Assembly: GCA_016184105.1 (NCBI GenBank)
Contig: JACPDI010000031.1
Location: forward strand, 70,673-134,672
Direction: 5' to 3'
Source: Acidobacteriota bacterium
GTDB lineage: Bacteria; Acidobacteriota; Vicinamibacteria; Vicinamibacterales; 2-12-FULL-66-21
DNA length: 64,000 nt
Shown piece by piece: positions 2 through 62,987 of this stretch. Below the pieces are notes generated by a model. It saw only the letters and a program-made list of their open reading frames with translations. It was not told the origin of the DNA and searched no databases. The position numbers and the translations under genes were made by a program. Positions within the stretch are counted from its first letter, which is position 1; every line of letters begins with the position of its first letter.

Positions 2-1579
2 AAGTGGAACAACAGCACGGGCAACGAGGAGACCGCCGCCTTCGTGCCGCTGCCCCCGACCAAGCCCGCGTACCAGTCGCCGGCCGACGGCGCGACGGGG
101 CTCTCGACCACCGTGACGCTCGTCTGGCACGGCGGCCGCTGGGCCCACAAGTACGACGTGCTCCTGGGCACGACGCCGGCCTCGCTCGCAGCGGTGGCGG
201 CGAACCTGGAGTTGGGGCCGAGCGAAACCTCGACGCAGTACAAGAGCTACACGGTCCCGAACCTGACTCCAGGCACCACCTACTACTGGCAGATCGTCAG
301 CAAGACGATGGCGGATCAGGTTGCCACGGGACCCGTGCGGAGCTTCACCACTGGCGGAGCGCCGCAGCCGCCGCCCACCACCGGTGTCCTCGGTCCCGGT
401 GACATCCTCCTCTACGCCGGGACGGCCAGCGTAAACGGCACGTGGCGCGCGGCGTCGGACAGCACGGCCGCCGGCGCGGTGCGGATGTATCAGCCCAACG
501 CGGGCGCCGCGAAGATCACGACGGCGCTTGCCAGCCCGACCAATTACTTCGAGCTGACGTTCGATGCGACCGCGGGCGTCGGCTACCGCCTGTGGATGCG
601 CATGAAGGCGGAAGGCAACGCCGCCCCCAACGACTCGGTCCACGTGCAGTTTTCGGAAAGCGTCACCTCATCGGGCGCCCCGGTTTACCGGATCGGCACC
701 ACGGGCATGACCGAAGTGAACCTGGAGGACTGCAGCGGCTGCGGCCTCCTCGAATGGGGCTGGCAGGACAACGGCTGGGGCATCAACGTGCTCGGGCCGC
801 TGATCTATTTCGAGACGACGGGCACGCAGACGATCCGTGTGCAGCAACGCGAGGACGGAGCGTCGATCGACCAGATCCTCCTCTCACCGGAGAAGTTCAA
901 GACGGCGGCGCCGGGGGCGCTGAAGAACGACGCGACGATCTACCCGGCGAGCAGCGGCGATGGCGCACCGCCGCCTCCGCCGCCTCCGGCGAGCGCCGAG
1001 GTGGTGCTGTACGCGTCGAAGGCTCCGGTGGTCGCCGGCAACTGGACCGTGGCGGCCGACGCCACCGCGGCCGGAGGCATGATGATGCGCAGCGCCAACA
1101 ACGGAGCCCCGAAGATCGTGGCGGGCTCGCCGGTCATCGCCAGCCCGGCCGACTATTTCGAAATGAGCTTCAACGCCGACGCCGGGCGGCCGTACCGCCT
1201 GTGGCTGCGCATGAAGGCGTCGAACAACGATTACCCGAACGACTCCGTGCACGTGCAGTTCTCCGACAGCACGAACGAGGCGGGCGCTCCGATCTACCGG
1301 ATCGGCACCACCTCGTCGGCCGAGGTCAATCTCGAGGACTGCAGCGGGTGCGGGTTGTTGAACTGGGGCTGGCAGGATAACGGGTATGGAACGTCCGTGC
1401 TCGGCCCGCTCGTGTATTTCGAAACCACCGGCGCCCACACGGTCCGGATCCAGATCCGCGAAGACGGCGTGTCGATCGATCACATCATCCTGTCGCCGGA
1501 GCGCTTCATTACGTCGTCGCCTGGACTGCTGAAGAACGACGCGAACATCTATGCCGAAAGCGGCGGGACCGACGGGTGA
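2..1579 (+). CDS. Secreted glycan-binding-like protein, 5' end cut by the window edge: Fn3-like module plus two tandem ~185-aa beta-sandwich (CBM-like) repeats
   Basis: The frame is open from nt 2, with no stop before the GTG at 44. Pro-rich linkers (PQPPPTT, APPPPPPPAS) separate the modules. The two internal repeats share YRLW-RMKA, NDSVHVQFS, YRIGTT, EVNLEDCSGCGLL-WGWQDNG and REDG-SID-I-LSPE-F. Confidence 0.7.
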   Translation, partial: KWNNSTGNEETAAFVPLPPTKPAYQSPADGATGLSTTVTLVWHGGRWAHKYDVLLGTTPASLAAVAANLELGPSETSTQYKSYTVPNLTPGTTYYWQIVSKTMADQVATGPVRSFTTGGAPQPPPTTGVLGPGDILLYAGTASVNGTWRAASDSTAAGAVRMYQPNAGAAKITTALASPTNYFELTFDATAGVGYRLWMRMKAEGNAAPNDSVHVQFSESVTSSGAPVYRIGTTGMTEVNLEDCSGCGLLEWGWQDNGWGINVLGPLIYFETTGTQTIRVQQREDGASIDQILLSPEKFKTAAPGALKNDATIYPASSGDGAPPPPPPPASAEVVLYASKAPVVAGNWTVAADATAAGGMMMRSANNGAPKIVAGSPVIASPADYFEMSFNADAGRPYRLWLRMKASNNDYPNDSVHVQFSDSTNEAGAPIYRIGTTSSAEVNLEDCSGCGLLNWGWQDNGYGTSVLGPLVYFETTGAHTVRIQIREDGVSIDHIILSPERFITSSPGLLKNDANIYAESGGTDG

Positions 1580-28646: not shown

Positions 28647-29599
28647 GCCGCGAGCCCGTCCGCGATCTTTTCCTGCAGGCGTGCGATAAAGCGGCCGGCG
28701 ATCGCATCGGGATATCCCGCGGCGCGAAACGCGTCGGCAAATTGCCGGTCCGTGATCCGGGCCAGCCGTTCGGAGATCCAGCGGATGTCGCGCCGGCGCA
28801 GCTGATTCAGCAGCTCGTCGTGGCGCCCCTGGTCGCCGAAGCGCGGCCGGTCACCATCGAACGCGATGATGAAGGGATGCGCCTCGAAGTGATCGGGATT
28901 GTTGCGGGAGCCGTCCGGCCACCGCGGCCGGCCGAAGGTGGCGCCGAGATCGCGCGCCACGTACCAGCGGCGCGCGCCGTCGCGCGGCTCGCCGAACTCG
29001 TAAATCTTGTTCTGCGAGGGCTTGATGTCCCAGTTGTTCAGGATGACGGCGAGTGCAAGCAGCCCGCGGTACGGCTGCGTGCCGACGAAGGGATTCCGGT
29101 GCAGCGACCATTCCCCGATGACCTTGCCGATCTCGGGACGGAACCGTGCGGAGTTCTGCGCCCCGGACGAGGGCCCCCCTTCCACGCTCCAGTGCGCGAG
29201 GAAGTAGGTCGGCGGCTGGCGATAGCCGGCAGCCCAGTAGATGCGCGAGGCGACGACCTCGGTCTGGGCCTCGGGGCCTTGCTTCGCGCTCCATTCGCGA
29301 CCCTGCGCGTCTTCGACGGTCAAGCCCGGGCTGAACCCGCCGGCTTTTTCCTCCTTGAACGTGAACGTGGCGCCATTCCGGGGCGCGAGCGCCCGACCGC
29401 CCGGCCCCCAGAACAGGTCGCGTGCCGCGATGTTCGACGGCTCGACCCACAGCTCGGCCATCTGCGCCGGCGCCGGCGGGCGCGGCGCAGTCCGGCGAAT
29501 CCTGGGCTCGCCGCACGCCGCGGCCGTGCAGGCGCAGAGCACGACGAGGAGGGCCGTCGGCGGCCGACGGCAGAGATGGAACGACATCGCGCCCACCAT
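28628..29599 (-). CDS. Lipoprotein with protein-kinase-like motifs (paralog A)
   Basis: Signal/lipobox LLVVLCACTAAAC, then WSAKQG, EVVASRI, NNWDIKPSQN and RDLGATFG. Shares the C-terminal ITDRQFADAFRAAGY...FI.RL..KI motif with paralog B. Confidence 0.55.
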   Translation of the reverse strand: MVGAMSFHLCRRPPTALLVVLCACTAAACGEPRIRRTAPRPPAPAQMAELWVEPSNIAARDLFWGPGGRALAPRNGATFTFKEEKAGGFSPGLTVEDAQGREWSAKQGPEAQTEVVASRIYWAAGYRQPPTYFLAHWSVEGGPSSGAQNSARFRPEIGKVIGEWSLHRNPFVGTQPYRGLLALAVILNNWDIKPSQNKIYEFGEPRDGARRWYVARDLGATFGRPRWPDGSRNNPDHFEAHPFIIAFDGDRPRFGDQGRHDELLNQLRRRDIRWISERLARITDRQFADAFRAAGYPDAIAGRFIARLQEKIADGLAACPRGC

Positions 29600-29669
29600 A
29601 CGGACGAGGCGATCTGCAAGGTTCGTACTCGCGCCCCCAACACCTCAACCGCAGAAGGCGCAAACGCGC

Positions 29670-32600
29670 TCAGTGAAAGTCGCGCGCCTCGACATCAGGG
29701 CCGCCGCCGCCGAGACCGTACAACCGCTCAGCTTTAATGGACGTCACTCCTTCCTGGATTTGCAGTGTGCCTTCCACCAGCAGGTAAGCCTCGCCGACCA
29801 CCGAACGCCGCTGCTTGGCGAACAGATCCGGCCGGACGATGATGTTGGCGATGCCCGTTTCGTCTTCAAGCGTGAGAAAGACGAACCCTTTCGCGGTGCC
29901 CGGCCGCTGGCGCGCGATGACGGCGCCCGCGACGCGCACGCGGCGGCCGTGCCGCCCCTGCGGCAGATCGCAGGCGCGCAGCACGCCGCGCAGCGCCAGC
30001 TCCTGGCGCCTGAGCGACATCGGATGCGGCCCGATCGTGAGACCGGTGCCCGCATAGTCCGCCTCGATGCGCTCGGCAAGCGTCATCCGGGCCAGCGGAC
30101 TCGCGTCGGCGGGGTCGGGAACCTGGGACCCGGGATCCGAAAACAGCTCACCCGCCGGCCGCATCGCGCGCTCGATCTGCCACATCGCGGCGCGCCGCTC
30201 GTAACCGAACGCGTTGAGCGCGCCGATGTCAGCCAGCGCGCGCAGCTCGTCGCGATGCACGCCGCTGCGCGCCACGAAGTCGTCCAGGGAGGTGAAGCGC
30301 GAAGGCGGCCGGCTGCACGTGGCACGTCGCACGTCGCACGTGGCACGTGGCACGTGGACCGCCCACTCGTGCGCGCAGACGCTACAGAAGCACGTCGTCC
30401 CCACGCGCTCGATCATCGCTTCGTCGTCCGAACCGCACTTGGGGCAAATGTCACGTGCGACGTGCGACGTGCCACGGTGCGACGTGCGATCGTGCGACGT
30501 GCGATCGTGCGACGTGCGATCGTGCGACGTGCGATCGTGCGGCGGACCGGCCTGCTCGATGGCCTTTCCCGCCTCCGCGCGCAGCCCATTGACGTATCGC
30601 AGCCCGAGGCGCACGCGCCCGTCCTCCTCGATGCTGCAGCCCCACCCCGACACCTGCACGTCGATCGGCGCGAAGCGCACGCCGCGGCGCTGCGCATCCT
30701 TGACGAGCGTGGCCGGCGAGTAGAACCCCATCGGCTGGTTGTTCAGCATCGCGGTGTAGAACGCCGCCGGGTAATGCGCCTTCAGGTAGGCGCTGGCATA
30801 GACGAGCAGCGCGAAGCTCGCGGCGTGCGACTCAGGGAAGCCGTAGAGCGCGAACGACGTGATCGCGCGGATGATCTCCTCCGCCGCGTCGTCACCGATC
30901 CCCTGCTTCGCGATGCCATCGCGCAGCTTCTGTTCGATCACGCGCATCCGCTTCTCCGAGCGCTTGAAGCCGAACGCGCGGCGCAGCTCCTCCGCTTCCC
31001 CTCCCGTGAATCCCGCCGCGACCATCGCCATGCGCAGGAGCTGCTCCTGGAAGAGCGGCACGCCGAGCGTGCGCTCGAGGATCGGCGCGAGCGACGGGTG
31101 CGGGTACACCACCGGCTCCACGCCGCGGCGCCGCTTCAGGTACGGGTGCACCATCTGGCCGACGATCGGACCGGGCCGGATGATCGCCACCTCGACGACG
31201 ATGTCGTAGAAACGCTCGGGCTTCATCCGCGGCAGCGTGGCCATCTGGGCGCGTGACTCCACCTGGAAGATGCCGATCGTGTCCGCCTCCTGCAGCATGC
31301 GGTAGACCGCGGGGTCGTCGGGGGGGAGGTGGACCAAATCCAGAGGGGCCGCAGGCGCTCCTCTGGCCTCTGAATTCACAATCGTCAGCGCATCTTGAAG
31401 CACCGCCATCATCCCCAGTCCAAGCAGGTCAACCTTCACGATCCCCATGTCCGCGCAGTCGTCCTTGTCCCACTGCGCGACGACGCGGCCGGGCATGCTG
31501 GCGTTTTCGAGGGGAACGACTTCATCGAGCCGCCCCTGGCAGACGATCATGCCGCCGGAGTGCTGCCCGAGGTGCCGCGGCAGATCGTGGATGCGCTCCC
31601 ACAGGTGGCCGAACGTGCGCAGCGCCGCGTTGGCGGGATCGAGCCCCGCGTCGCGCAGGTGCCGCTCGAGCGTGTCCTTCGGGTCGATCCACTCGAAGGG
31701 GTTCATCACCTTCGCCAGGCGGTCCACCTCGCCGGGCTCCAGCCCGAGGACCTTGCCGATATCGCGCGCCGCGCTGCGCCCGCGATAGGTGATGACGTTG
31801 GCGGTCATTGCCGCACTCTGCCCTTCGGGGGCCGCACTCTGCCCTTCGGGGGGCGCGCCACGCTTCCCGTAGCGCTCGTAGACGTACTGAATCACTTGCT
31901 CGCGGCGGTCGCCGCTCGGCAGATCGAGATCGATGTCGGGCCACTCGCCGCGCTCCTCGGAAAGAAACCGTTCGAAGAGCAAATCCATCCCGACCGGGTC
32001 CACCGCGGTGATGCCCAGGCTGTAGCAGACCGCGCTGTTGGCCGCCGAGCCGCGCCCCTGCACGAGGATCCCGTGCTGCCGGCAGTAGTTCACGATGTCC
32101 CAGACGATGAGGAAGTACCCGGCGAGATCGAGCTTCTCGACGAGCGACAGCTCGCGCTCGATCTGCGCGCGCGCGCGCGCGTGGTACGGCCGATAGCGCT
32201 CGCGCGCCCCCGCGTCCGTGATCTTCCGCAGGAACGAGCCCATCGTCTCGCCGGCGGGCACGGGGTACTCGGGAAAGCGGTAGCCGAGATCGGCCATCGT
32301 GTACTGCAGGCGGTCCGCCAGATCGCGCGTCGCCGCCACCGCGTGCGGCAGATCGTGGAAGAGCACCGCCATCTGCTCCGGCGACTTGAGGTACCGCTCC
32401 GCGTTCACGCTGAGGCGCCGGCCTGCGCGCGCGATCGTCGTCTTGTGACGGAGGCACGTGAGGACGTCGTACAGCGGGCGATCGGCCGGCTCGGCAAAGC
32501 GCACGCCGTTGGTCGCGATGACGGGGACGTGAAACGCCGAGGCCAGCGACAGCAGCGCGTGGTTGTCCGATTCCTCGTCGCGGCGCAGATGGCGCTGCAG

Positions 32601-33122
32601 CTCGACGTACACGCTGCCGCGCCCGAACATGCCGACGGCGCGGTCGACGAGCCCGCCCACGCCGTGCCGCGGCCCCTGCAGCGCCTCGCGCCCGATGAGC
32701 GCGACGAGCCCCGCCGTGCGGCCGTCGAGCTCCTCGAGGTCGAGCGACCCCTCGCCTTTCGGCGCGCGGAGCTTCATCTGCGTGATCAGGCGGCAGAGAT
32801 TCTTGTAGCCAATGGCGGACTCGACGAGGACCGGGAGACGCCAGAGGGAGAAAAAGGGGTCGGGAGCCTTTTTCGAGGCGTCAACGGCGAAAAAGGCTCC
32901 CGACCCCTTTTTCTCCCTGATCGTGATCTCCGCGCCGACAATCGCGCGCAGCCCCGCTTTCTTCGCCGCCAGGTGAAATCGCGGCGCGCCGTAGAAGCCG
33001 TCTCGATCGACGAGGGCGAGCGCCGGATAGCCGAGCGCCGCCGCGCGGTCGACGAGCGCTTCGGGCAGCGAGGCGCCGTCGAGGAATGAAAAGGCCGAAG
33101 CGGAATGGAGTTCGATATACAC
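29670..33122 (-). CDS. dnaE2: Error-prone DNA polymerase III alpha subunit DnaE2 (ImuC), with several in-frame insertions
   Basis: GTG start, then MYIELHSASAFSFLDGAS PHP domain. Pol III alpha core motifs run throughout and a C-terminal OB region is present. Sits downstream of imuA-imuB. Confidence 0.9.
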   Translation of the reverse strand: MYIELHSASAFSFLDGASLPEALVDRAAALGYPALALVDRDGFYGAPRFHLAAKKAGLRAIVGAEITIREKKGSGAFFAVDASKKAPDPFFSLWRLPVLVESAIGYKNLCRLITQMKLRAPKGEGSLDLEELDGRTAGLVALIGREALQGPRHGVGGLVDRAVGMFGRGSVYVELQRHLRRDEESDNHALLSLASAFHVPVIATNGVRFAEPADRPLYDVLTCLRHKTTIARAGRRLSVNAERYLKSPEQMAVLFHDLPHAVAATRDLADRLQYTMADLGYRFPEYPVPAGETMGSFLRKITDAGARERYRPYHARARAQIERELSLVEKLDLAGYFLIVWDIVNYCRQHGILVQGRGSAANSAVCYSLGITAVDPVGMDLLFERFLSEERGEWPDIDLDLPSGDRREQVIQYVYERYGKRGAPPEGQSAAPEGQSAAMTANVITYRGRSAARDIGKVLGLEPGEVDRLAKVMNPFEWIDPKDTLERHLRDAGLDPANAALRTFGHLWERIHDLPRHLGQHSGGMIVCQGRLDEVVPLENASMPGRVVAQWDKDDCADMGIVKVDLLGLGMMAVLQDALTIVNSEARGAPAAPLDLVHLPPDDPAVYRMLQEADTIGIFQVESRAQMATLPRMKPERFYDIVVEVAIIRPGPIVGQMVHPYLKRRRGVEPVVYPHPSLAPILERTLGVPLFQEQLLRMAMVAAGFTGGEAEELRRAFGFKRSEKRMRVIEQKLRDGIAKQGIGDDAAEEIIRAITSFALYGFPESHAASFALLVYASAYLKAHYPAAFYTAMLNNQPMGFYSPATLVKDAQRRGVRFAPIDVQVSGWGCSIEEDGRVRLGLRYVNGLRAEAGKAIEQAGPPHDRTSHDRTSHDRTSHDRTSHRGTSHVARDICPKCGSDDEAMIERVGTTCFCSVCAHEWAVHVPRATCDVRRATCSRPPSRFTSLDDFVARSGVHRDELRALADIGALNAFGYERRAAMWQIERAMRPAGELFSDPGSQVPDPADASPLARMTLAERIEADYAGTGLTIGPHPMSLRRQELALRGVLRACDLPQGRHGRRVRVAGAVIARQRPGTAKGFVFLTLEDETGIANIIVRPDLFAKQRRSVVGEAYLLVEGTLQIQEGVTSIKAERLYGLGGGGPDVEARDFH
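30315..30356 (+). repeat. Heptamer tandem array (GCACGTS x6) inside dnaE2
   Basis: gcacgtg gcacgtc gcacgtc gcacgtg gcacgtg gcacgtg, 42 nt. On the coding strand it translates as VHVPRATCDVRRATC. Confidence 0.9.
30452..30540 (+). repeat. Inverted-orientation heptamer / 15-mer tandem array (SACGTGC units; gacgtgcgatcgtgc x4) inside dnaE2
   Basis: cacgtgc gacgtgc gacgtgc cacggtgc, then four copies of gacgtgc-gatcgtgc. Encodes (HDRTS)x4. The units are the reverse complement of those at 30315-30356. Confidence 0.9.
31810..31851 (+). repeat. Perfect 21-bp tandem duplication inside dnaE2
   Basis: gccgcactctgcccttcgggg x2, encoding PEGQSAA-PEGQSAA. Confidence 0.9.
32846..32917 (+). repeat. 72-nt perfect palindromic element inserted in frame in dnaE2
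   Basis: 28-nt arms gggagaaaaaggggtcgggagccttttt / aaaaaggctcccgacccctttttctccc around a 16-nt loop. 24 codons (EKKGSGAFFAVDASKKAPDPFFSL). Confidence 0.9.
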
Positions 33123-33191
33123 GAAGGTTCACACGAAGGTTCACACGAAGGTTCACGCGAAGGCTCACGCGAAGGCTCGCACGAAGGTTCG
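33120..33191 (+). repeat. 12-bp tandem array x6 abutting the dnaE2 start codon (imuB-dnaE2 spacer)
   Basis: cacgaaggttca x3, cgcgaaggctca, cgcgaaggctcg, cacgaaggttcg. On the coding strand the units read TGAACCTTCGTG, and the last GTG is the dnaE2 start. Confidence 0.9.
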
Positions 33192-33248
33192 ACCGCGCGC
33201 TCTGAATCCTCGCCGGAACCACCGTTCGAACCCTCGTGAGAACCTTCG

Positions 33249-34721
33249 TCAGTCCAGAATCCCCTCTACAAACCACCTGTCCTCGTGACGATCGCGGCAG
33301 ATCCGGTAGGCCGCGCCGTCGGCGAGCGTTACGTCGTATTCATCGCGGTCCCAGCAGGCGCCGGGGTCGCGGCCGCTCCACCAGCCGCCGGACGATCGCC
33401 ACGGCCCGGCGCACTGCTCCACCGCGCCGCCGCGGATGCCAATCCGATCCGTGGTCACGCGCGCCACCCGCTCGCCCTCGAGCGCCACGCGCGCGACAAC
33501 GGGGATGCGAAAGCGTCGCAGAACAGGTCTCGCCTTCGCGCTTCGCGCTTCGGCGCAGCTGGCGCCCCTGTTCGCGCTTCGCGCTTCGGCGGGCGCGAAC
33601 GGCGCGAGCGTGAACGCGTCCGGCGCGTGCGAGTCGAGGAGCACCGGCGAGCCCACGCGTCCCTCTCCCATCAGCGCCGTCAGCCTCGACACCACCGTCG
33701 CGATCGTTTCGGGCTGCGTCCCGGCGCGCTCGAGCAGCGAGAACTGGACGATGCGTCCCGGGGCCGGCTCGAGCCGGACGGCGATACGATCGATGCCCGC
33801 CGGCGGCGGATGGGACTCGAGATCGAGCAGGATGAGCGTGCGCAGCACGCGCGCCTCGCGCATCGGCGCGGGCAGCTCGATGCGCCGCACGTGCGTCTCG
33901 CGCGTCTTCGTCCCGTCCGCATCCACGCGGGCGGTCACGAGCGTGAGCGTCGTCTCGAGAACGGCTGCGCCGCGATCGGCGCGCTCGAGCGCGGCGCTCA
34001 ACGGATCGAGCAGCCGCGTGAGCACGAACGACACCGGCTGCAGCGCGTCGAGCGGCCACTCGAGATCGAAGGACGCCTCGAAGCGCGCCTCGTCGAGGAC
34101 CGGCACGAGCGGCTGCGTGTCGAGGCCGCGCGCGAACCGCTGCAGCACGACGCCGGCCTGGCCGAGCCGCGCCGCCAGATCGGCCGCGGGCAGCGCCGCG
34201 AGATCGCCGAGCGTGACCAGCCCCCATCGGCGCAGCGTGGCAAGCTCGGTGCACGCGCCGCCCGGCTCGCCGCAACGGCCGGGCGCGCCGGCCAGGCGGC
34301 ACAACGCGCAGGCGCGAACAAGGGGCCGGGAGCCTTTTTTCTGCAGCCGCGGCGGTAAAAAGGCTCCCGGCCCCTTGTTCGCCGCCAGCGTGTCGAACAC
34401 CTCCAGCGACAGCGCGCCCACGGCGGCCGCGGTCCTCCCCGGCAGGACGACGCTGTACGGCTGCGCGATGGCGAGCAGGAGGGCCGCCGTGCGGGAGGGC
34501 GCGACCGCCACCGACACGGTCACGTGCGGCGTGCGACGTGCGGCGTGCGACAGTTCTTCCGCGATCGCCGCGGCATCGCCAACGATGCGCGTGAGGCCGG
34601 CGGTGTCGATGAGCACCAGCCGCCCGCCGAGCTGCGGCTCGACGCGCGGCGAACACGCCTGTGCCGCGGCAAGCAGCGCAGCGGCATCCTTACTGTCCGG
34701 GCTGAACAGTGCGGCGAACAC
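33249..34721 (-). CDS. imuB: ImuB, Y-family-polymerase-like mutasome subunit
   Basis: Position between imuA and dnaE2, and VFAALFSP...LVLIDTAGLTRIVG N-terminus. I propose the GTG at 34721, preceded by GGAGG-containing repeats. The ORF-track start at 34829 lies inside imuA. Confidence 0.75.
   Translation of the reverse strand: MFAALFSPDSKDAAALLAAAQACSPRVEPQLGGRLVLIDTAGLTRIVGDAAAIAEELSHAARRTPHVTVSVAVAPSRTAALLLAIAQPYSVVLPGRTAAAVGALSLEVFDTLAANKGPGAFLPPRLQKKGSRPLVRACALCRLAGAPGRCGEPGGACTELATLRRWGLVTLGDLAALPAADLAARLGQAGVVLQRFARGLDTQPLVPVLDEARFEASFDLEWPLDALQPVSFVLTRLLDPLSAALERADRGAAVLETTLTLVTARVDADGTKTRETHVRRIELPAPMREARVLRTLILLDLESHPPPAGIDRIAVRLEPAPGRIVQFSLLERAGTQPETIATVVSRLTALMGEGRVGSPVLLDSHAPDAFTLAPFAPAEARSANRGASCAEARSAKARPVLRRFRIPVVARVALEGERVARVTTDRIGIRGGAVEQCAGPWRSSGGWWSGRDPGACWDRDEYDVTLADGAAYRICRDRHEDRWFVEGILD
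33535..33606 (+). repeat. Imperfect 36-nt tandem duplication inside imuB
   Basis: ttcgcgcttcgcgcttcggcg occurs at 33535-33555 and at 33571-33591. Encodes the AEARSA...AEARSA repeat. Confidence 0.75.
34314..34382 (+). repeat. 69-nt perfect palindromic element inserted in frame in imuB (same family as 32846-32917)
   Basis: 26-nt arms gcgaacaaggggccgggagccttttt / aaaaaggctcccggccccttgttcgc around a 17-nt loop. 23 codons (ANKGPGAFLPPRLQKKGSRPLVR). Confidence 0.9.
34521..34548 (+). repeat. Heptamer array (cacgtgc ggcgtgc gacgtgc ggcgtgc) inside imuB
   Basis: Same SRCGTGC unit family and orientation as 30452-30540. Confidence 0.8.
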
Positions 34722-35493
34722 TCCCCGAACCTCCGTGCGCACCTCCGTGCGAACCTCCGTGCGAAGCCCGCCCCAGCACGCGCGCCTGCGGCGCAATCCC
34801 GTCGAACAGCCGCGCGCGCGCCGACGCACCGCGCCACCGGGGCGCGGCGGCGCCGCCGAGCACGATCGTCACGCCCCCCGCGCTGCGGCCGGCGCGCTCG
34901 GGCGCGACGAGCAGCGCGGCGGTGGATCCCCCTTCGATCAGCCGCGCCAGGCGAAGCCAGGTCGTGAACGGCAGCCGCCGCAGGACGGGCGGCGGCACGT
35001 CGGCGAGATCGCAGACCGCGAGGCCGAAGGCGCGCGACTCCAGCACGACGGTGAACGCCTTGAGCGCGCGCTCCACTGCACGCCAAAGCGATGAGGTGTT
35101 TCCCGGCGCCGCGTGCCCGCTCGCGCGGATCGCCTCGACGCTGGCCGCCACGCCGCGCACCCACAACAGGTTCCCGAGCTGCACCCCCGTGGCCGCCGCC
35201 GACTCCACATCGAACCGATCCAGCGCGTCCACCAGCGCCGCCGCCCCGCCGGCCGCGGTCGCCGACGCAAGCGCGGCACACATGAGCGTGGTCCGCCCGG
35301 TGGAGCGCGCTCCCGCAATCTCCGACAGCTCACCCCGCGGCAATCCACCGCCAAGCCGCGCGTCGATCTCGGCATGGCCGAGCGGCAGCAGCGGCCGCCC
35401 GGCGTCGAGCGCCGGGCGCAGGTGCGTCAGCGTGGCGTCGAGCTTTTTCGCGCGAAGCAGCGATTCGAGGTGGGCGCGGGCCGCGGCAGCCAT
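34690..35493 (-). CDS. imuA: ImuA, RecA/SulA-like mutasome subunit
   Basis: LPLGHAEIDARLGGGLPRGELSEIAGARSTGRTTL Walker-like segment. First gene of the cassette. ATG at 35493. Confidence 0.75.
   Translation of the reverse strand: MAAAARAHLESLLRAKKLDATLTHLRPALDAGRPLLPLGHAEIDARLGGGLPRGELSEIAGARSTGRTTLMCAALASATAAGGAAALVDALDRFDVESAAATGVQLGNLLWVRGVAASVEAIRASGHAAPGNTSSLWRAVERALKAFTVVLESRAFGLAVCDLADVPPPVLRRLPFTTWLRLARLIEGGSTAALLVAPERAGRSAGGVTIVLGGAAAPRWRGASARARLFDGIAPQARVLGRASHGGSHGGAHGGSGSVRRTVQPGQ
34727..34762 (+). repeat. 12-bp tandem array x3 at the imuA 3' end / imuB start
   Basis: gaacctccgtgc gcacctccgtgc gaacctccgtgc. The coding strand reads GCACGGAGGTTC, so each unit contains GGAGG. Encodes (SHGG)x3 at the ImuA C-terminus. 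The unit resembles the reverse complement of the 33120-33191 unit. Confidence 0.85.
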
Positions 35494-35538
35494 GGTGTCC
35501 GGTCGAGGTGTTTCGCTTTTATTTCGCCTGCCGGACGC

Positions 35539-35568
35539 AGTATAAACCACCCAGCGACGCTGGGGCAA
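35539..35568 (-). promoter_or_regulatory. Candidate sigma70-type promoter of imuA with a palindrome in the spacer
   Basis: The minus strand reads TTGCCC-N18-TATACT. The spacer contains the inverted repeat CCAGCG-t-CGCTGG (35551-35563). The -10 lies about 46 nt upstream of the imuA ATG. Confidence 0.3.
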
Positions 35569-35578
35569 CATCGCCGCG

Positions 35579-35630
35579 GAACACGCAGAACACGCGGAAA
35601 AATACGGGATCCTGCGTGTTCAGCGCGTTC
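35579..35630. promoter_or_regulatory. Inverted repeat with GAAC/GTTC tetrads in the imuA / MFS divergent region (candidate operator)
   Basis: GAACACGCAGAAC ... 26 nt ... GTTCAGCGCGTTC. The inner arms GAACACGCAG / CTGCGTGTTC are perfectly complementary over 10 nt. Confidence 0.35.
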
Positions 35631-35655
35631 CGCGGCGCAGCCCTCTCCTGCTAAG

Positions 35656-36930
35656 ATGATTTCCTTGTCCTCTGACGCCCTGAAAACCGAAGGTGAGGCC
35701 GCCCCTTCGGTTCCGAACCACGGGTTCATCCGCCGGACCGCCGCCGCCTTCACTTACCGCGATTTCCGCATCCTCTGGACAGGCGCCTTCATGTCCACGG
35801 TCGGCACGTGGATGCAGAAGGTCGCGCAAAGCTGGCTGGTCCTCTCGCTCACCGGGTCGTCATTCTTCCTGGGGCTCGACGATTTCCTCGCGCAGCTTCC
35901 CATCCTGCTCCTGACGCTGATTGGCGGCGTGATTGCCGATCGCTACGACCGGCGCCGGCTCCTCATCGGCTCGCAGTACGTGCAGATGACGGCCGCGTTC
36001 ATCCTCACGGCGCTCGTCTACTGGCAGGTCGTGGAGCTGTGGCACATCCTCGCGCTGTCGTTCATCACCGGCGTCGCGCAGGCGTTCGGCGGCCCGGCGT
36101 ACCAGTCGCTGATCCCGTCGCTCGTGGATCGCAAGGACCTGCCCAACGCGATCGCGCTCAACTCGATCCAGTTCAACCTGGCGCGCGTGTTCGGGCCGAT
36201 CCTCGCCGGCGCCACGCTCGCCGCGTTCGGCACGGCGATGTGCTTCGCGGTCAACGGCGTTTCGTTCCTCATCGTGATCGTCGCGCTGATGGCGCTCGGC
36301 GTGAAACACATCCCGCCGCTGACACGCCAGCCGATGATGGACGAGCTGCGCGGCGGCATCGCGTACGCCCGCAGCGAGCCGGCGATCATCTCGCTCACCC
36401 TCCTCGGCTTCGTCACGACGTTCCTGGGGCTGCCGCTGCTGACGCTGCTGCCGGTCTTCGCGCGCGACGTCTTTCACGGCGGTGTCGGCCGCTACACGCA
36501 GATGATGGCCTTCTCCGGCATCGGCGCCGTCTCCGGCGCGCTCATCGTCGCGTGGCTGGGACGGTTCAGGCACATGGGGCTGGCGACGCTGCTCCTGCAG
36601 ATCGTGTTCGGGCTGTTGCTCGTCGGCTTCGCGCTGTCGCGCCTGCTGTGGCTGAGCAACGTCCTGCTCTTCGTGGCGGGCGCCGCGCTGATCGCGGTGT
36701 TTTCGTTCACGGCCTCCCTCGTGCAGCTGATCGTGCCGGATCACCTCCGTGGCCGTGTCGTCAGCATTTACATGGTGGCGTTCCGCGGCGGCATGCCGCT
36801 TGGCGGGCTGGCCGCGGGCACGATGGCCAGCATCACCTCGGCGCCGACCGCGCTGGTGACGGGAGGAACGCTGCTCGTCGCGATCGCGGTCTATTACCTG
36901 TTCCGCGGCCACGGCCTCCGGGAGTTGTAA
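35656..36930 (+). CDS. MFS transporter (EntS/MFS_3-like)
   Basis: FRILWTGAFMSTVGTWMQKVAQSWLV and GGVIADRYDRRRLL, with about 12 predicted TM segments. ATG at 35656. Confidence 0.8.
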   Translation: MISLSSDALKTEGEAAPSVPNHGFIRRTAAAFTYRDFRILWTGAFMSTVGTWMQKVAQSWLVLSLTGSSFFLGLDDFLAQLPILLLTLIGGVIADRYDRRRLLIGSQYVQMTAAFILTALVYWQVVELWHILALSFITGVAQAFGGPAYQSLIPSLVDRKDLPNAIALNSIQFNLARVFGPILAGATLAAFGTAMCFAVNGVSFLIVIVALMALGVKHIPPLTRQPMMDELRGGIAYARSEPAIISLTLLGFVTTFLGLPLLTLLPVFARDVFHGGVGRYTQMMAFSGIGAVSGALIVAWLGRFRHMGLATLLLQIVFGLLLVGFALSRLLWLSNVLLFVAGAALIAVFSFTASLVQLIVPDHLRGRVVSIYMVAFRGGMPLGGLAAGTMASITSAPTALVTGGTLLVAIAVYYLFRGHGLREL

Positions 36931-60228: not shown

Positions 60229-60256
60229 ACAGCCCGACCGCGGGATAGAATGGTCC

Positions 60257-60427
60257 GATGGCTCCGGGTGAAGTGTGCGTGTACTGCCGACGCCGCCCGG
60301 TGGCGCCCGAATGGAAGCCGTTCTGCAGCCAGCGCTGCCGGATGGCGGATCTCGGCCGCTGGCTCTCACAGGACTACCGCGTGGCGGGCGACACGTCGCC
60401 CCCCGAATCTGACGACGACGATGCCTG
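60257..60427 (+). CDS. yacG: DNA gyrase inhibitor YacG (zinc finger), 56 aa, absent from the supplied ORF track
   Basis: My own translation is MAPGEVCVYCRRRPVAPEWKPFCSQRCRMADLGRWLSQDYRVAGD.... It has the CxxC...PFCSxRCxxxDLGxW signature. The TGA at 60425-60427 overlaps the gltA ATG at 60421. Confidence 0.7.
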
Positions 60428-61713
60428 ATACTCTGACAATTACCGACAACCGTACCGGCAAGCAGTACGAAATCCCGATCCAGGACGACACAATCAAGGC
60501 CATGGATCTGCGGCAGATCAAGGTCAAGCCCGACGACTTCGGCATGATGACCTACGACCCCGCCTTCCAGAACACGGCCGCGTGCCGCAGCCGGATCACG
60601 TACATCGACGGCGACAAGGGGGTGCTGCTCTACCGCGGCTACCCGATCGAGCAGCTCGCCGAACACAGCGACTTCCTCGAAACCGCGTACCTGCTCCTCT
60701 TCGGCGAGCTGCCGACGGCGGCGCAGATGCAGGCGTGGATCAAGGAGGTCACCCTCCACACGATGGTCCACGAGAACATCAAGAAGTTGATGGAGGCGTA
60801 CCAGTATGACGCACACCCGATGGGGATCTTCCTGAGCACGGTGGGCGCCTTCTCGACCTTCTACCCGGACGCCAAGCAGATCTTCAACCCCGAGGCGCGC
60901 CGCCGGCAGATCGTGCGGCTCGTCGCCAAGGTGCCGACGATTGCGGCCTACGCGTTTCGCCACAGCATCGGTCGCCCGTACGTGTACCCGGACAACGACC
61001 TGAGCTACACGGGCAACTTCCTGAACATGCTGTTCAAGATGACCGAGCTGAAGTACCAGTCGCACCCCGTGCTGGAGCGCGCGCTCGACGTCCTCTTCAT
61101 CCTCCACGCAGACCACGAGCAGAACTGCAGCACGAGCGCGATGCGCGGCATCGGCAGCTCGCACGCCGATCCGTACTCGTCGATGGCGGGCGCCGCCGCC
61201 GCGCTGTACGGCCCGCTGCACGGGGGCGCGAACGAGGCCGTGCTGCGCATGCTGCACGAGATCGGATCGCTCTCGAACGTGCCGGCATTCATCAAGAAGG
61301 TGAAGGCGGGCGAAGGGCGGCTGATGGGATTCGGCCACCGGGTGTACAAGTCGTACGACCCGCGCGCCAAGATCATCAAGAAGATCGCCGACCTCGTGTT
61401 CGCCGTGACGGGGCGCAACCCGCTGCTCGACATCGCCCTCGAGCTGGAGCGCATCGCGCTCGAGGACGAGTACTTCGTCAACCGGAAGCTGTACCCGAAC
61501 GTCGACTTCTACTCGGGCCTCATCTACCAGGCGATGAAATTCCCGGTCGAGATGTTCCCGGTGCTCTTCGCGATCCCGCGCGCGGCGGGCTGGATGGCGC
61601 AGTGGGAAGAGATGATCCTGGACCAGGACCAGAAGATCGCGCGCCCGCGGCAGATCTACGTCGGGAGCGCGAAGCGGGATTACGTGCCGAGGGACAAGCG
61701 GAAGGAAGTCTGA
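60421..61713 (+). CDS. gltA: Citrate synthase (type II)
   Basis: MPDTLTITDNRTGKQYEIPI..., plus HADHEQNCSTS and GFGHRVYK active-site motifs. Confidence 0.95.
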   Translation: MPDTLTITDNRTGKQYEIPIQDDTIKAMDLRQIKVKPDDFGMMTYDPAFQNTAACRSRITYIDGDKGVLLYRGYPIEQLAEHSDFLETAYLLLFGELPTAAQMQAWIKEVTLHTMVHENIKKLMEAYQYDAHPMGIFLSTVGAFSTFYPDAKQIFNPEARRRQIVRLVAKVPTIAAYAFRHSIGRPYVYPDNDLSYTGNFLNMLFKMTELKYQSHPVLERALDVLFILHADHEQNCSTSAMRGIGSSHADPYSSMAGAAAALYGPLHGGANEAVLRMLHEIGSLSNVPAFIKKVKAGEGRLMGFGHRVYKSYDPRAKIIKKIADLVFAVTGRNPLLDIALELERIALEDEYFVNRKLYPNVDFYSGLIYQAMKFPVEMFPVLFAIPRAAGWMAQWEEMILDQDQKIARPRQIYVGSAKRDYVPRDKRKEV

Positions 61714-61717
61714 GCGA

Positions 61718-61778
61718 AAGGGGGACAGTCACACTTTCCTCGGCAGGGCCAGGAAAGTGTGACTGTCCCCCTTTTTTC
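61718..61778 (+). terminator. Rho-independent terminator between convergent gltA and the LeuA-like gene
   Basis: Perfect 22-bp stem (aagggggacagtcacactttcc / ggaaagtgtgactgtccccctt), a 12-nt loop, and a T6 run at 61772-61777. Confidence 0.85.
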
Positions 61779-62987
61779 TCAACTGCCGATTTCGTCGAGG
61801 ATTTCCGCCTCGCTCAGCACCGTCGCCGACCGCTTCGCGCGGGCGAAGATGCGATCCACCAGCTCGTCGCCCGCGGGCAGGCCGCGTCTTTCCAGCCAGT
61901 AGATCACGTTCGATCGGCCTGACATCGGTCCGACCTCGATCTCCTGCTCGCGCCCGATCAACCGCGCGGGCACCGAGGAGTAGACCGCGTCGGCGAGCTC
62001 CCGGTCGTTCTTGCGGAACGCCTTGACGACCGCCGCGGCGTGGACGCCGGTCGCCGTGCGAAACGCGTCCCGGCCGAGCACCGGGTAGTTCGGCGGCAGC
62101 GGCACACGGCAGGCGTCGGACACCAGACGGGCATACTCGGGCAGCGGCGTGAGATCGCGGTTCAGGTATCCCATCAGCACCAGGTTGACGAGCAGCAGAT
62201 CCATCGGCGTGTTGCCCACGCGCTCGCCGATGCCGATGGCCGTTCCGTGCAGCCGCGTGGCGCCCGCCTCGTACGCCGCGATCGTCGAGATCACGCCCAG
62301 GTCGCGGTCGCGGTGGCCGTGCCAGTCGATGCCGATCTGATCGCCCCCGCTCTCCTTGATCACCTCCGCGATGAACCGCACAACGGCGCGCGCGCCCGCC
62401 GGCGTCGCATGCCCGACGGTATCCGCCACGCACAGGCGGCTCGCGCCGGCGCGGAGGGCCGTGGAATAGAGCTTGCGGATGCTGTCCGGGTCCGCCCGCG
62501 TCGTGTCCTCGGTGACGTACATGACCGGCAGCCCTTCGCGCACCGCGAACGTGATGGCGTCCTCCGTCCACCGCTGCAGCTCGTCGATCGTCCAGCCCTC
62601 CGCGTACTGGCGGATGGGACTCGACCCGATGAACGCGCAGCACTCGATCGGGATGCCGACGCGCTGCGAGATCTCCGCGATCGGCCGTATGTCGGCAATG
62701 ACCGTCCGCGCGGCGCAGTTCGGCCTGATGTTGAGCCCCGCGTCCGCGATCTCGCGCGCGAGCAGCTCCACGTCTCGGACCACGTGCGGCCCGGCGCCCG
62801 GCAGCCCGATGTCGGCCGTGTCGATCCGGAGCGCCTCCATGAGATGGAGGATGCGGATCTTGTCCTCGATCGCGGGCGCGCAGACCGACGGGGACTGGAG
62901 CCCGTCGCGCAGCGTCTCGTCGTCCAGCATCGGCGCGTGCGCCGGCGCCTCGCCGCGCTGGTTCCAGTCGAAGATGAGCGGGTGCAT
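61779..62987 (-). CDS. HMGL-like 2-isopropylmalate/homocitrate synthase family protein (short form, no LeuA regulatory domain)
   Basis: LDDETLRDGLQSP and HGHRDRDLG (HxH metal site). Confidence 0.8.
   Translation of the reverse strand: MHPLIFDWNQRGEAPAHAPMLDDETLRDGLQSPSVCAPAIEDKIRILHLMEALRIDTADIGLPGAGPHVVRDVELLAREIADAGLNIRPNCAARTVIADIRPIAEISQRVGIPIECCAFIGSSPIRQYAEGWTIDELQRWTEDAITFAVREGLPVMYVTEDTTRADPDSIRKLYSTALRAGASRLCVADTVGHATPAGARAVVRFIAEVIKESGGDQIGIDWHGHRDRDLGVISTIAAYEAGATRLHGTAIGIGERVGNTPMDLLLVNLVLMGYLNRDLTPLPEYARLVSDACRVPLPPNYPVLGRDAFRTATGVHAAAVVKAFRKNDRELADAVYSSVPARLIGREQEIEVGPMSGRSNVIYWLERRGLPAGDELVDRIFARAKRSATVLSEAEILDEIGS

Follow-up and report, generated by a model that had tools for sequence, protein, structure and literature searches.

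Why should the gene for an error-prone DNA polymerase carry a perfect palindrome within its coding sequence, and carry it without loss of the reading frame? The question is raised by dnaE2 in a 64,000-nt stretch of a contig from an Acidobacteriota bacterium of the Vicinamibacterales (GenBank JACPDI010000031.1, positions 70,673 to 134,672; hereafter the window). A preliminary description of the hairpin offered two answers: it might be an intragenic attenuator or RNase target that throttles expression of the mutagenic polymerase, or it could equally be a selfish element, akin to a MITE (a miniature transposable element with inverted repeats), tolerated in a surface loop, as is known for the Rickettsia palindromic elements (RPEs). 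Our analysis points toward a selfish element, of a different kind. With a probability of roughly 0.8, we consider the hairpin a non-autonomous REPIN-like satellite repeat, that is, a dimer of terminal inverted repeats (TIRs), belonging to a Y1 (HUH) transposase of the RAYT, TnpA-REP or TIRYT type. We read it in this way because the same arms flank a transposase gene elsewhere.

Results

Two perfect hairpins in the window

The hairpin in dnaE2 (copy 1) is as perfect as had been claimed. At 32846-32917, an arm of sequence gggagaaaaaggggtcgggagccttttt and its exact reverse complement enclose a 16-nt loop, for a total of 72 nt. The 28-nt arms and 16-nt loop of the preliminary description are too conservative, since perfect pairing continues one base further outward and two further inward, giving arms of 31 nt (31/31 paired; 32845-32875 and 32888-32918), a loop of 12 nt, and an element, assigned to neither strand, at 32845..32918. 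The conserved family core, AAGGGGTCGGGAGCCTTTTT, occupies 32854-32873, with its complement at 32890-32909. On the minus strand, copy 1 is read in frame as EKKGSGAFFAVDASKKAPDPFFSL, amino acids 70-93 of DnaE2 (...ITIREKKGSGAFFAVDASKKAPDPFFSLWRLPVLV...), and both translation and domain matches uphold its length of 24 codons and the unbroken frame within the PHP domain. A5 precedes and T5 trails the G+C-rich stem. The RNA from either strand is predicted to fold at -64 to -65 kcal/mol, compared with -29 to -31 kcal/mol for dinucleotide shuffles (z = -8.8 to -9.9; 0/200 shuffles fold equally well).

A second member of the same family does lie in frame in imuB, at 34314..34382 (likewise unstranded). 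Copy 2 has 26-nt perfect core arms, GCGAACAAGGGGCCGGGAGCCTTTTT and its complement, around a 17-nt interior, with the core at 34320-34339 and 34357-34376. Its 69 nt correspond to 23 codons, read on the minus strand within the ImuB-like protein as ...NKGPGAFLPPRLQKKGSRPLVR.... A T-to-C difference from copy 1 is present in both arms, with pairing kept, and TTGTT is found where a U-tract would stand. The predicted RNA folds of the two hairpins span -64 to -75 kcal/mol. A search of the window with the 20-nt core, allowing up to three mismatches, gave four matches, corresponding to these two elements (shuffle expectation 0.00), and a profile hidden Markov model built from 204 family arms found only copies 1 and 2, as expected from the earlier report that there is no further copy in the 64 kb.

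Known DNA uptake sequences occur about once per kb; with only two elements in 64 kb, we ruled out this candidate. An integron attC site was also ruled out, given that copy 1 is without R''/R' motifs and no integrase is encoded in the surroundings. An Rfam scan of 29000-36500 with permissive E-values returned no family, only generic microRNA-hairpin matches far under the gathering scores.

The hairpins are members of a dispersed family of palindromes

The arm core AAGGGG[T/A/C]CGGGAG[T/C]CTTTTT, arranged as arm, variable interior and inverted arm, was found across Acidobacteriota, Planctomycetota and Nitrospirota. An exact scan for AAGGGGNCGGGAGCCTTTTT of one representative genome per species returned 32 loci, chiefly from Planctomycetota and Acidobacteriota (including Vicinamibacterales), with some from Nitrospiraceae, and many of these have a second arm in the architecture seen in the window. 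Several of the partner arms read GACTCCC, suggesting GGGAGTC as the commoner variant; when C or T was permitted at that position, a scan of metagenomes gave at least 120 loci, nearly all with GGGAGTC. From these matches we collected 104 complete arm-interior-arm elements of about 50-170 nt, with interiors of 3-135 nt. The partner arm is downstream, such that the T-run points toward the interior as in the window copies, in 129 arm matches, and upstream in 8. Among viral contigs, one lone arm without a partner was found in an A+T-rich contig, and we take this match to be due to chance.

The consensus arm, (G)AAAAAGGGG[T 80% / A 16%]CGGGAG[T 82% / C 17%]CTTTTT(C), is about 25 nt long and, read directly, is free of stop codons in all six frames. 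Paired arms covary at the variable core positions, both at position 7 (T/T 77, A/A 15, C/C 1, discordant 7) and at position 14 (T/T 78, C/C 14, discordant 8). Window copy 2 is the sole C/C case at position 7. Pairing is above background for about 5 nt outside the core, in the A/T run, and for a variable distance inward. The idea that palindromy might reach far into the target DNA was dropped, since the outward excess ends after these ~5 nt. Some subfamilies have conserved interiors, for example one of 55 nt that is shared by several contigs from a single sample.

Most copies are intergenic, many of them at gene ends, and a minority are in frame inside real genes. The preliminary description had called for a core search of other genomes with copies tallied as coding or intergenic; in this tally, an open frame across +/-180 nt is missing in 52/91 elements with enough flanking sequence, and about ten elements (~10%) are read through in frame. 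On at least one side of 47/88 elements, a frame that is open for 100 codons or more comes to its end within 30 nt, and many arms merge with a TAA stop codon. A coding test based on G+C content at third codon positions, applied to the 104 elements, is a rough guide in high-G+C DNA, and we relied on Pfam for eight read-through copies, all of which fall within or between domains of real genes. These domains (Porphobil_deam, PseudoU_synth_2, AMP-binding, chorismate-binding, DEAD, Pkinase, ATP-grasp and EamA) indicate as host products porphobilinogen deaminase (HemC), an RluA-type pseudouridine synthase, an acyl-CoA synthetase, a PabB-like chorismate-binding enzyme, a DEAD-box helicase, a Ser/Thr kinase, an ATP-grasp ligase and an EamA transporter. 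The read-through copy in locus L014 is from a Planctomycetota genome, and that in L025 from an Acidobacteria genome. Use is made of all three frames of each arm, as KGSGVF, RGRESF and GVGSLF from one strand, and as KDSRPL, KTPDPF and KRLPTP from the other. The behavior earlier likened to that of RPEs, with other copies in frame within unrelated housekeeping genes, is thus seen in this family.

The same arms bracket a Y1 transposase gene

A six-frame motif search identified a Y1 transposase-like open reading frame (ORF) at 342-1013 of locus L071, bracketed by arms at 283-305 (+) and 1010-1033 (-). The first of these, AAAAGGGGTCGGGAGTCTTTTC, is 37 nt upstream of the ATG, and the second, AAAAAGACTCCCGACCCCTTT, overlaps the stop codon. 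The 223-aa product matches PF01797 (Y1_Tnp) with 48 bits (cutoff 23) over residues 12-126, has no Pfam match in the ~95 residues that follow, and scores 73 bits against NF047646, 'REP-associated tyrosine transposase' (cutoff 80). Its sole relative in the PDB is E. coli TnpA-REP (4ER8, E = 1e-5), aligned over the whole catalytic core, and it contains the motifs YVERNP (Y---NP) and PNHWH (the HUH motif). Relatives are abundant, with 7993 of 8000 scored candidates at E <= 1e-20. The best 120 are nearly all 223 aa long and at least 67% identical to the query, and those with names are from Nitrospira/Nitrospirales and Terriglobia.

The association was also found in loci fetched by the protein alone. 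The gene is bracketed by both arms in L160 (Terriglobia), L161/L162, L165, L166, L171 and L173 (the last four from Nitrospira), and only the upstream arm remains in L163/L164. In these protein-fetched loci, the upstream arm is followed by TTGACA, and the arms bracket the promoter together with the gene. Among loci fetched by the DNA motif only, a transposase profile search detected the transposase or a fragment of it in nine. In L071, L024, L099 and L004, the transposase frame runs directly up to an arm at its 3´ end; in L037, L116, L145 and L146, an arm is within or beside this frame. Altogether, the two arms flank the transposase gene in at least 12 independent loci. In L099, the arm adjoins a Y1 transposase fragment beside an ISL3-like N-terminus. 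In L058, what lies between two arms separated by 2 kb is an ordinary outer-membrane-type ORF and not a transposase.

We found no target-site duplication of 2-8 bp above shuffled expectation at boundary offsets 0-8. This result fits the chemistry of HUH enzymes (IS200/IS605, RAYT) and argues against a MITE of the DDE type.

In L165-L174, all contigs of Nitrospira sp., the arm-flanked 223-aa transposase (P0233) is identical across many samples, and its gene has a fixed context beside a PIN-domain toxin pair and RHS-repeat genes. A context of this kind is more in keeping with a RAYT-like gene that is single-copy and vertically kept than with a multi-copy insertion sequence (IS). A weaker Y1-like ORF match is found ~2.5 kb downstream of the P0233 gene in L165-L170.

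Both window copies are recent insertions

The closest homologs of the window DnaE2 come from metagenome-assembled genomes of Vicinamibacterales (Acidobacteriota) and range in length from 1099 to 1426 aa. We aligned the N-termini of 120 DnaE2 orthologs, a comparison that the preliminary description had recommended, and found the 24 residues to be an insertion that, among these, is unique to the window protein. About half of the 120 have a short loop at this site (…AELTIAI-GTAASVF-RLPVLVES…), and the remaining orthologs carry unrelated inserts of up to ~50 residues at exactly the same place. The closest DnaE2 orthologs (86-81% identity) do not have the element, nor are there arms of the window family in six syntenic loci (94.5 kb), indicating that both window copies are recent and lineage-specific. 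Two observations that had been named as refuting a mobile palindromic element, the peptide in distant orthologs without the palindrome and lack of the core elsewhere, were not made.

Comparison of the DNA at the insertion site in the six orthologous loci (L034, L035, L156, L157, L158 and L159) suggests what else can occupy this position. The loop is short in L034 and in L159, the nearest relative (86% identity). L035 has 21-nt tandem repeats, and L156, L157 and L158 have different hairpins, of -57 to -81 kcal/mol, composed of heptamers of the GGGATTC/GGGGCTC type together with the complements of these, which make up a repeat family distinct from that of the window. The PHP-domain loop of DnaE2 (window 32837-32917, aa 69-95) is an indel hotspot. 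At the ImuB site of copy 2, L034 and L035 have NRS/NPS tandem repeats.

Structural comparison and prediction agree that the dnaE2 insertion is in a loop, as had been supposed. On E. coli Pol III alpha (2HNH, 4JOM), it falls in the PHP domain at the turn between 'GADFNVQ' and 'LTHLTVLAAN'. E. coli alpha has only a short turn here and, together with the short loop of about half the orthologs, this bears out the impression that the peptide is foreign to Pol III alpha. In an AlphaFold model of DnaE2 residues 1-300 (mean predicted local distance difference test score, pLDDT, 76), strands are formed by residues 59-70 and 92-100, and insert residues 71-91 are coil with pLDDT ~50. The model, of low confidence in this loop, suggests a floppy surface loop between two beta-strands of the PHP domain.

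The host operon

The host of copy 1, dnaE2 (29670..33122, minus strand), encodes an intact error-prone DNA polymerase of 1150 aa, which matches NF004225 with 1210 bits over residues 2-1150 and has the Pfam domains PHP (aa 4-178), DNA_pol3_alpha, finger, HHH_6 and OB. The host of copy 2 is an imuB-like gene (33249..34829, minus strand) for an inactive Y-family-polymerase-like protein, assigned by domain matches and ortholog alignment. An imuA-like gene encoding a RecA-fold protein (34690..35571, minus strand; domain matches) is the first gene of the imuA-imuB-dnaE2 operon and has no copy of the element.

Several other features of this operon were apparent. The listed imuB ORF opens 36 codons before the start seen in orthologs (M/VFAALYSP...), and alignment to these places the true start probably near 34721 (VFAALFSP...). 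The extra N-terminus (…TEVRTEVRTEVR…) derives from a 12-nt tandem array at 34726-34765 that overlaps the imuA end. The imuB-dnaE2 spacer is 126 nt in the window versus 37 nt in L034, and most of it is occupied by six tandem copies of a 12-nt unit (ACACGAAGGTTC) at 33119-33190. DnaE2 aa 912-946 (~30280-30390) constitute a Cys4 zinc-ribbon-like insert (CPKCG...CSVCAHEW), located between the point where the HhH (HHH_6) match begins and the OB domain, well ahead of the latter. This insert is outside the standard DnaE2 profile and is kept in aligned Vicinamibacterales orthologs (consensus RCPKCGCDD...FCNVCAHEW), with variable repeats on its flanks. A -10-like box, TATACT, precedes imuA, and just upstream of this box there is a palindrome at 35572-35637, with 24-nt arms that are 92% complementary and contain repeated GAACACGC units. 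The TATACT region is common to relatives and the palindrome is not; the latter may be either an operator or a further inserted repeat.

Tandem repeats occupy 4.78% of bases in the imuA-imuB-dnaE2 operon and 0.58% in its flanks, an enrichment of ~8-fold across six Vicinamibacterales loci (window 29670-35571; L034 7757-13387; L035 7670-13561; L156 3812-9666; L157 3776-9675; L158 322-5998). Many arrays are built of 7- or 8-nt units that are in frame solely as 21- or 24-nt super-units, such that gain or loss of one unit would shift the frame. Two arrays of this type in the window are at 30315-30357 and 30453-30541, the latter encoding TSHDR x5. The simple explanation, for these repeats and for the presence of both hairpin copies in the operon, is relaxed constraint on an operon that is normally repressed and dispensable. 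We also raise, as an unlikely alternative, that the Vicinamibacterales operon is a dedicated hotspot for slippage-prone or hairpin DNA, in which contingency switches or targets of single-stranded DNA processing tune or phase-vary inducible mutagenesis. This suggestion draws on the REPIN-like element, the heptamer-built hairpins, and the 7- and 8-nt arrays that are in frame as unit triplets. If it were true, the repeats in the operon would not be merely tolerated junk.

Outside the operon, the window has a second kind of perfect hairpin at 61717-61774; its arms (AAAGGGGGACAGTCACACTTTCCT) are 24 nt long, its loop is 10 nt, and T6 comes next. It is exactly between the convergent ORFs 60250..61713 (+) and 61779..62987 (-), and holds GGGGACAG, an exact match to the published TIRYT consensus GGGG[AT][CG]A[CG]. 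This hairpin is probably a further repeat associated with a transposase, placed, as is usual, between genes in the manner of a terminator.

Discussion

A REPIN-like repeat and its presumed partner

We suggest that the hairpins in dnaE2 and imuB are satellite repeats of the RAYT-like transposase whose gene is bracketed by the same arms. By analogy with IS200/IS605 elements and with TnpA-REP biochemistry, copies would be made in trans by the transposase acting on single-stranded, folded arms, without target duplication. Persistence in the two genes could be due to stop-free arms, whole codon numbers (24 and 23), and a loop that tolerates the addition. The Gly/Ser/Lys/Pro-rich peptide would form a disordered surface loop, with the proteins staying functional, and any effects on the mRNA, such as slowing of ribosomes or latent termination once translation uncouples, would be incidental and would not account for the presence of the element.

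Several observations weigh against this interpretation. A single arm does not form a convincing REP hairpin, as its sole self-pairing is a weak A5G / CT5. The arms are without the GTAG or CGTC tag of classical REPs, the flanks beyond ~5 nt are at background, and the match to the TIRYT motif GGGG[AT][CG]A[CG] is at 7/8 positions. A profile search for transposases of this family had no match in the 64-kb window, and we infer mobility of the copies from their distribution. Finally, both window copies are within the 5.9-kb mutasome operon, which makes up 9% of the window. Under random neutral placement, the probability of this is about 0.01, or about 0.09 for the second copy given the first, and this placement is one point that the selfish reading leaves unexplained.

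Other explanations

The shared operon is among the observations that favor a regulatory role, in which the hairpin is selected because it throttles ImuA-ImuB-DnaE2 from within the mRNA, whether as an attenuator, as a latent bidirectional terminator or as an entry site for RNase. The hairpins have very stable predicted RNA folds (-64 to -75 kcal/mol), A5/T5 surround the G+C-rich stem of copy 1, different hairpins are at the same DnaE2 codon position in other lineages, and intergenic family members often come directly after stop codons, as terminators do. Set against this, the element is missing from the nearest orthologs and from all six syntenic operons, copy 2 has TTGTT and no U-tract, and the identical element is inside hemC-like, rluA-like, helicase and kinase genes that are unrelated to mutagenesis. 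Its sequence is, moreover, that of the transposase-flanking repeat. Nor do the copies resemble intrinsic (bidirectional) terminators, as they are inside ORFs, have loops of 12-17 nt, and were both passed over by a consensus terminator scan. The intragenic attenuator or terminator of the preliminary description is thus not borne out, and we regard a selected regulatory hairpin as improbable.

The other proposal made at the outset, a selfish MITE-like element in a surface loop, fared better in part. The element does appear to be selfish and is borne in a loop. Terminal inverted repeats around a short interior and many dispersed copies would also be expected of a classical MITE, derived by deletion from an IS with a DDE transposase and moved by cut-and-paste with target duplication. 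However, no direct duplication of 2-8 bp was found at any tested boundary, the gene between full-length arms encodes a Y1 HUH transposase and not a DDE enzyme, and the distant arms of L058 enclose an outer-membrane-type ORF with no transposase. We therefore consider a classical MITE very unlikely.

The hairpin might instead have arisen locally, by template switching or slippage in an indel-prone loop, with no mobile family involved. The perfect pairing, the varied hairpins and tandem repeats at this loop, and the ~8-fold enrichment of tandem repeats in the operon are all in keeping with such an origin. It is contradicted by the 20-nt core, which recurs, identical or nearly so, in over 100 elements of other phyla and in the transposase-flanking arms, leaving local origin with hardly any probability. 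An assembly artefact, a fold-back chimera in this metagenome-assembled contig, is scarcely credible: perfect palindromes can come from library preparation or assembly, and the exact window protein has no record elsewhere, but there are two differing copies, each exactly in frame in an intact gene, and homologous elements are found in many independent assemblies made with different assemblers.

Implications

A perfect palindrome in an essential-looking gene can be explained without regulation, as a transposase-associated repeat that is readable in every frame. This is not a new mechanism. Di Nocera et al. (2013; PMC3733652) reported REPs inserted in frame in dnaE2, at aa 934-971 in Opitutus terrae and at aa 166-246 in Sphingomonas wittichii, as well as in genes for pseudouridine synthases and for RNA helicases, such that this kind of insertion has been known since 2013. 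Acidobacteriota DnaE2 and ImuB now join this published and still puzzling pattern of palindromic repeats in replication and repair genes. Our data also tie a widespread repeat, for which we found no published description, to a conserved RAYT-like transposase. Text searches of the literature gave no paper with the arm sequence or the encoded peptides, and no account of how broadly the repeat is spread over Nitrospirota, Acidobacteriota and Planctomycetota or of the copies that are in frame. Inserts of this type lengthen annotated proteins and give rise to low-complexity, 'foreign' peptides, and they can be mistaken for regulatory RNA structures.

Comparison with known systems

The intergenic copies, with a G+C-rich stem between A/T runs right after stop codons, are reminiscent of SPRITE and other terminator-like mobile repeats. 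The likeness is one of position and form alone; the family described here has long, variable interiors and is associated with a Y1 transposase. Like the RPEs, which are palindromic, stop-free and in frame in unrelated housekeeping genes, where they add a surface peptide (PMC10969869), the window copies extend their host proteins. However, the sequences are unrelated, the elements are ~50-170 nt long compared with ~100-150 nt for RPEs, the hosts are free-living bacteria of soil and water (Acidobacteriota, Planctomycetota, Nitrospirota), there is a candidate transposase partner, and ~10% of copies are intragenic. The resemblance to RPEs is in behavior and not in membership.

The similarity to the REP/REPIN-RAYT system is more extensive. 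In both cases, the doublets are inverted and fold into a long hairpin, units in inverted orientation surround a single RAYT-type gene (an arm-flanked gene of this type was found here in other genomes), copies are mostly just 3´ of genes, no target duplication is seen, and occasional copies are in frame, including in genes for dnaE2, an RNA helicase and a pseudouridine synthase (PMC3733652). The classical unit, in contrast, is an imperfect palindrome of 20-40 nt, whereas the GGGGTCGGGAGTC core is not self-complementary. The arm profile has neither the GTAG nor the CGTC tag, and the arm is conserved across phyla, unlike classical REP families, which are specific to a genus or species. REPs number tens to hundreds per host genome; the 64 kb at hand contain two copies of the present element.

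The TIRYTs provide another comparison. Di Nocera et al. (2013) described RAYT-like genes flanked by long inverted repeats, termed TIRYT/TIRtrons, with the motif GGGGWSAS, and included a group from Acidobacteria; moderately abundant TIR families were often dimers (PMC3733652). Quentin et al. (2018) placed the TIRYTs in subclass 2.1 of TnpA-REP, the sole class-2 subclass that spans taxonomic groups (PMC6006769). The arms of our family differ from the motif in reading GGGG[T/A]CGG versus GGGG[AT][CG]A[CG], with G for A at position 7. TIRYT transposases have a helix-turn-helix-like extension at the C-terminus, where the ~95 residues of the 223-aa protein beyond its Y1_Tnp match have no Pfam hit. 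The 223-aa protein is a candidate for TIRYT/subclass 2.1, and the correspondence in arrangement is broad: a Y1 gene with Y---NP (YVERNP in our case) has long inverted repeats instead of REP hairpins, and repeats that begin with GGGG[AT][CG] are dispersed, often as dimers, in Acidobacteria and across phyla.

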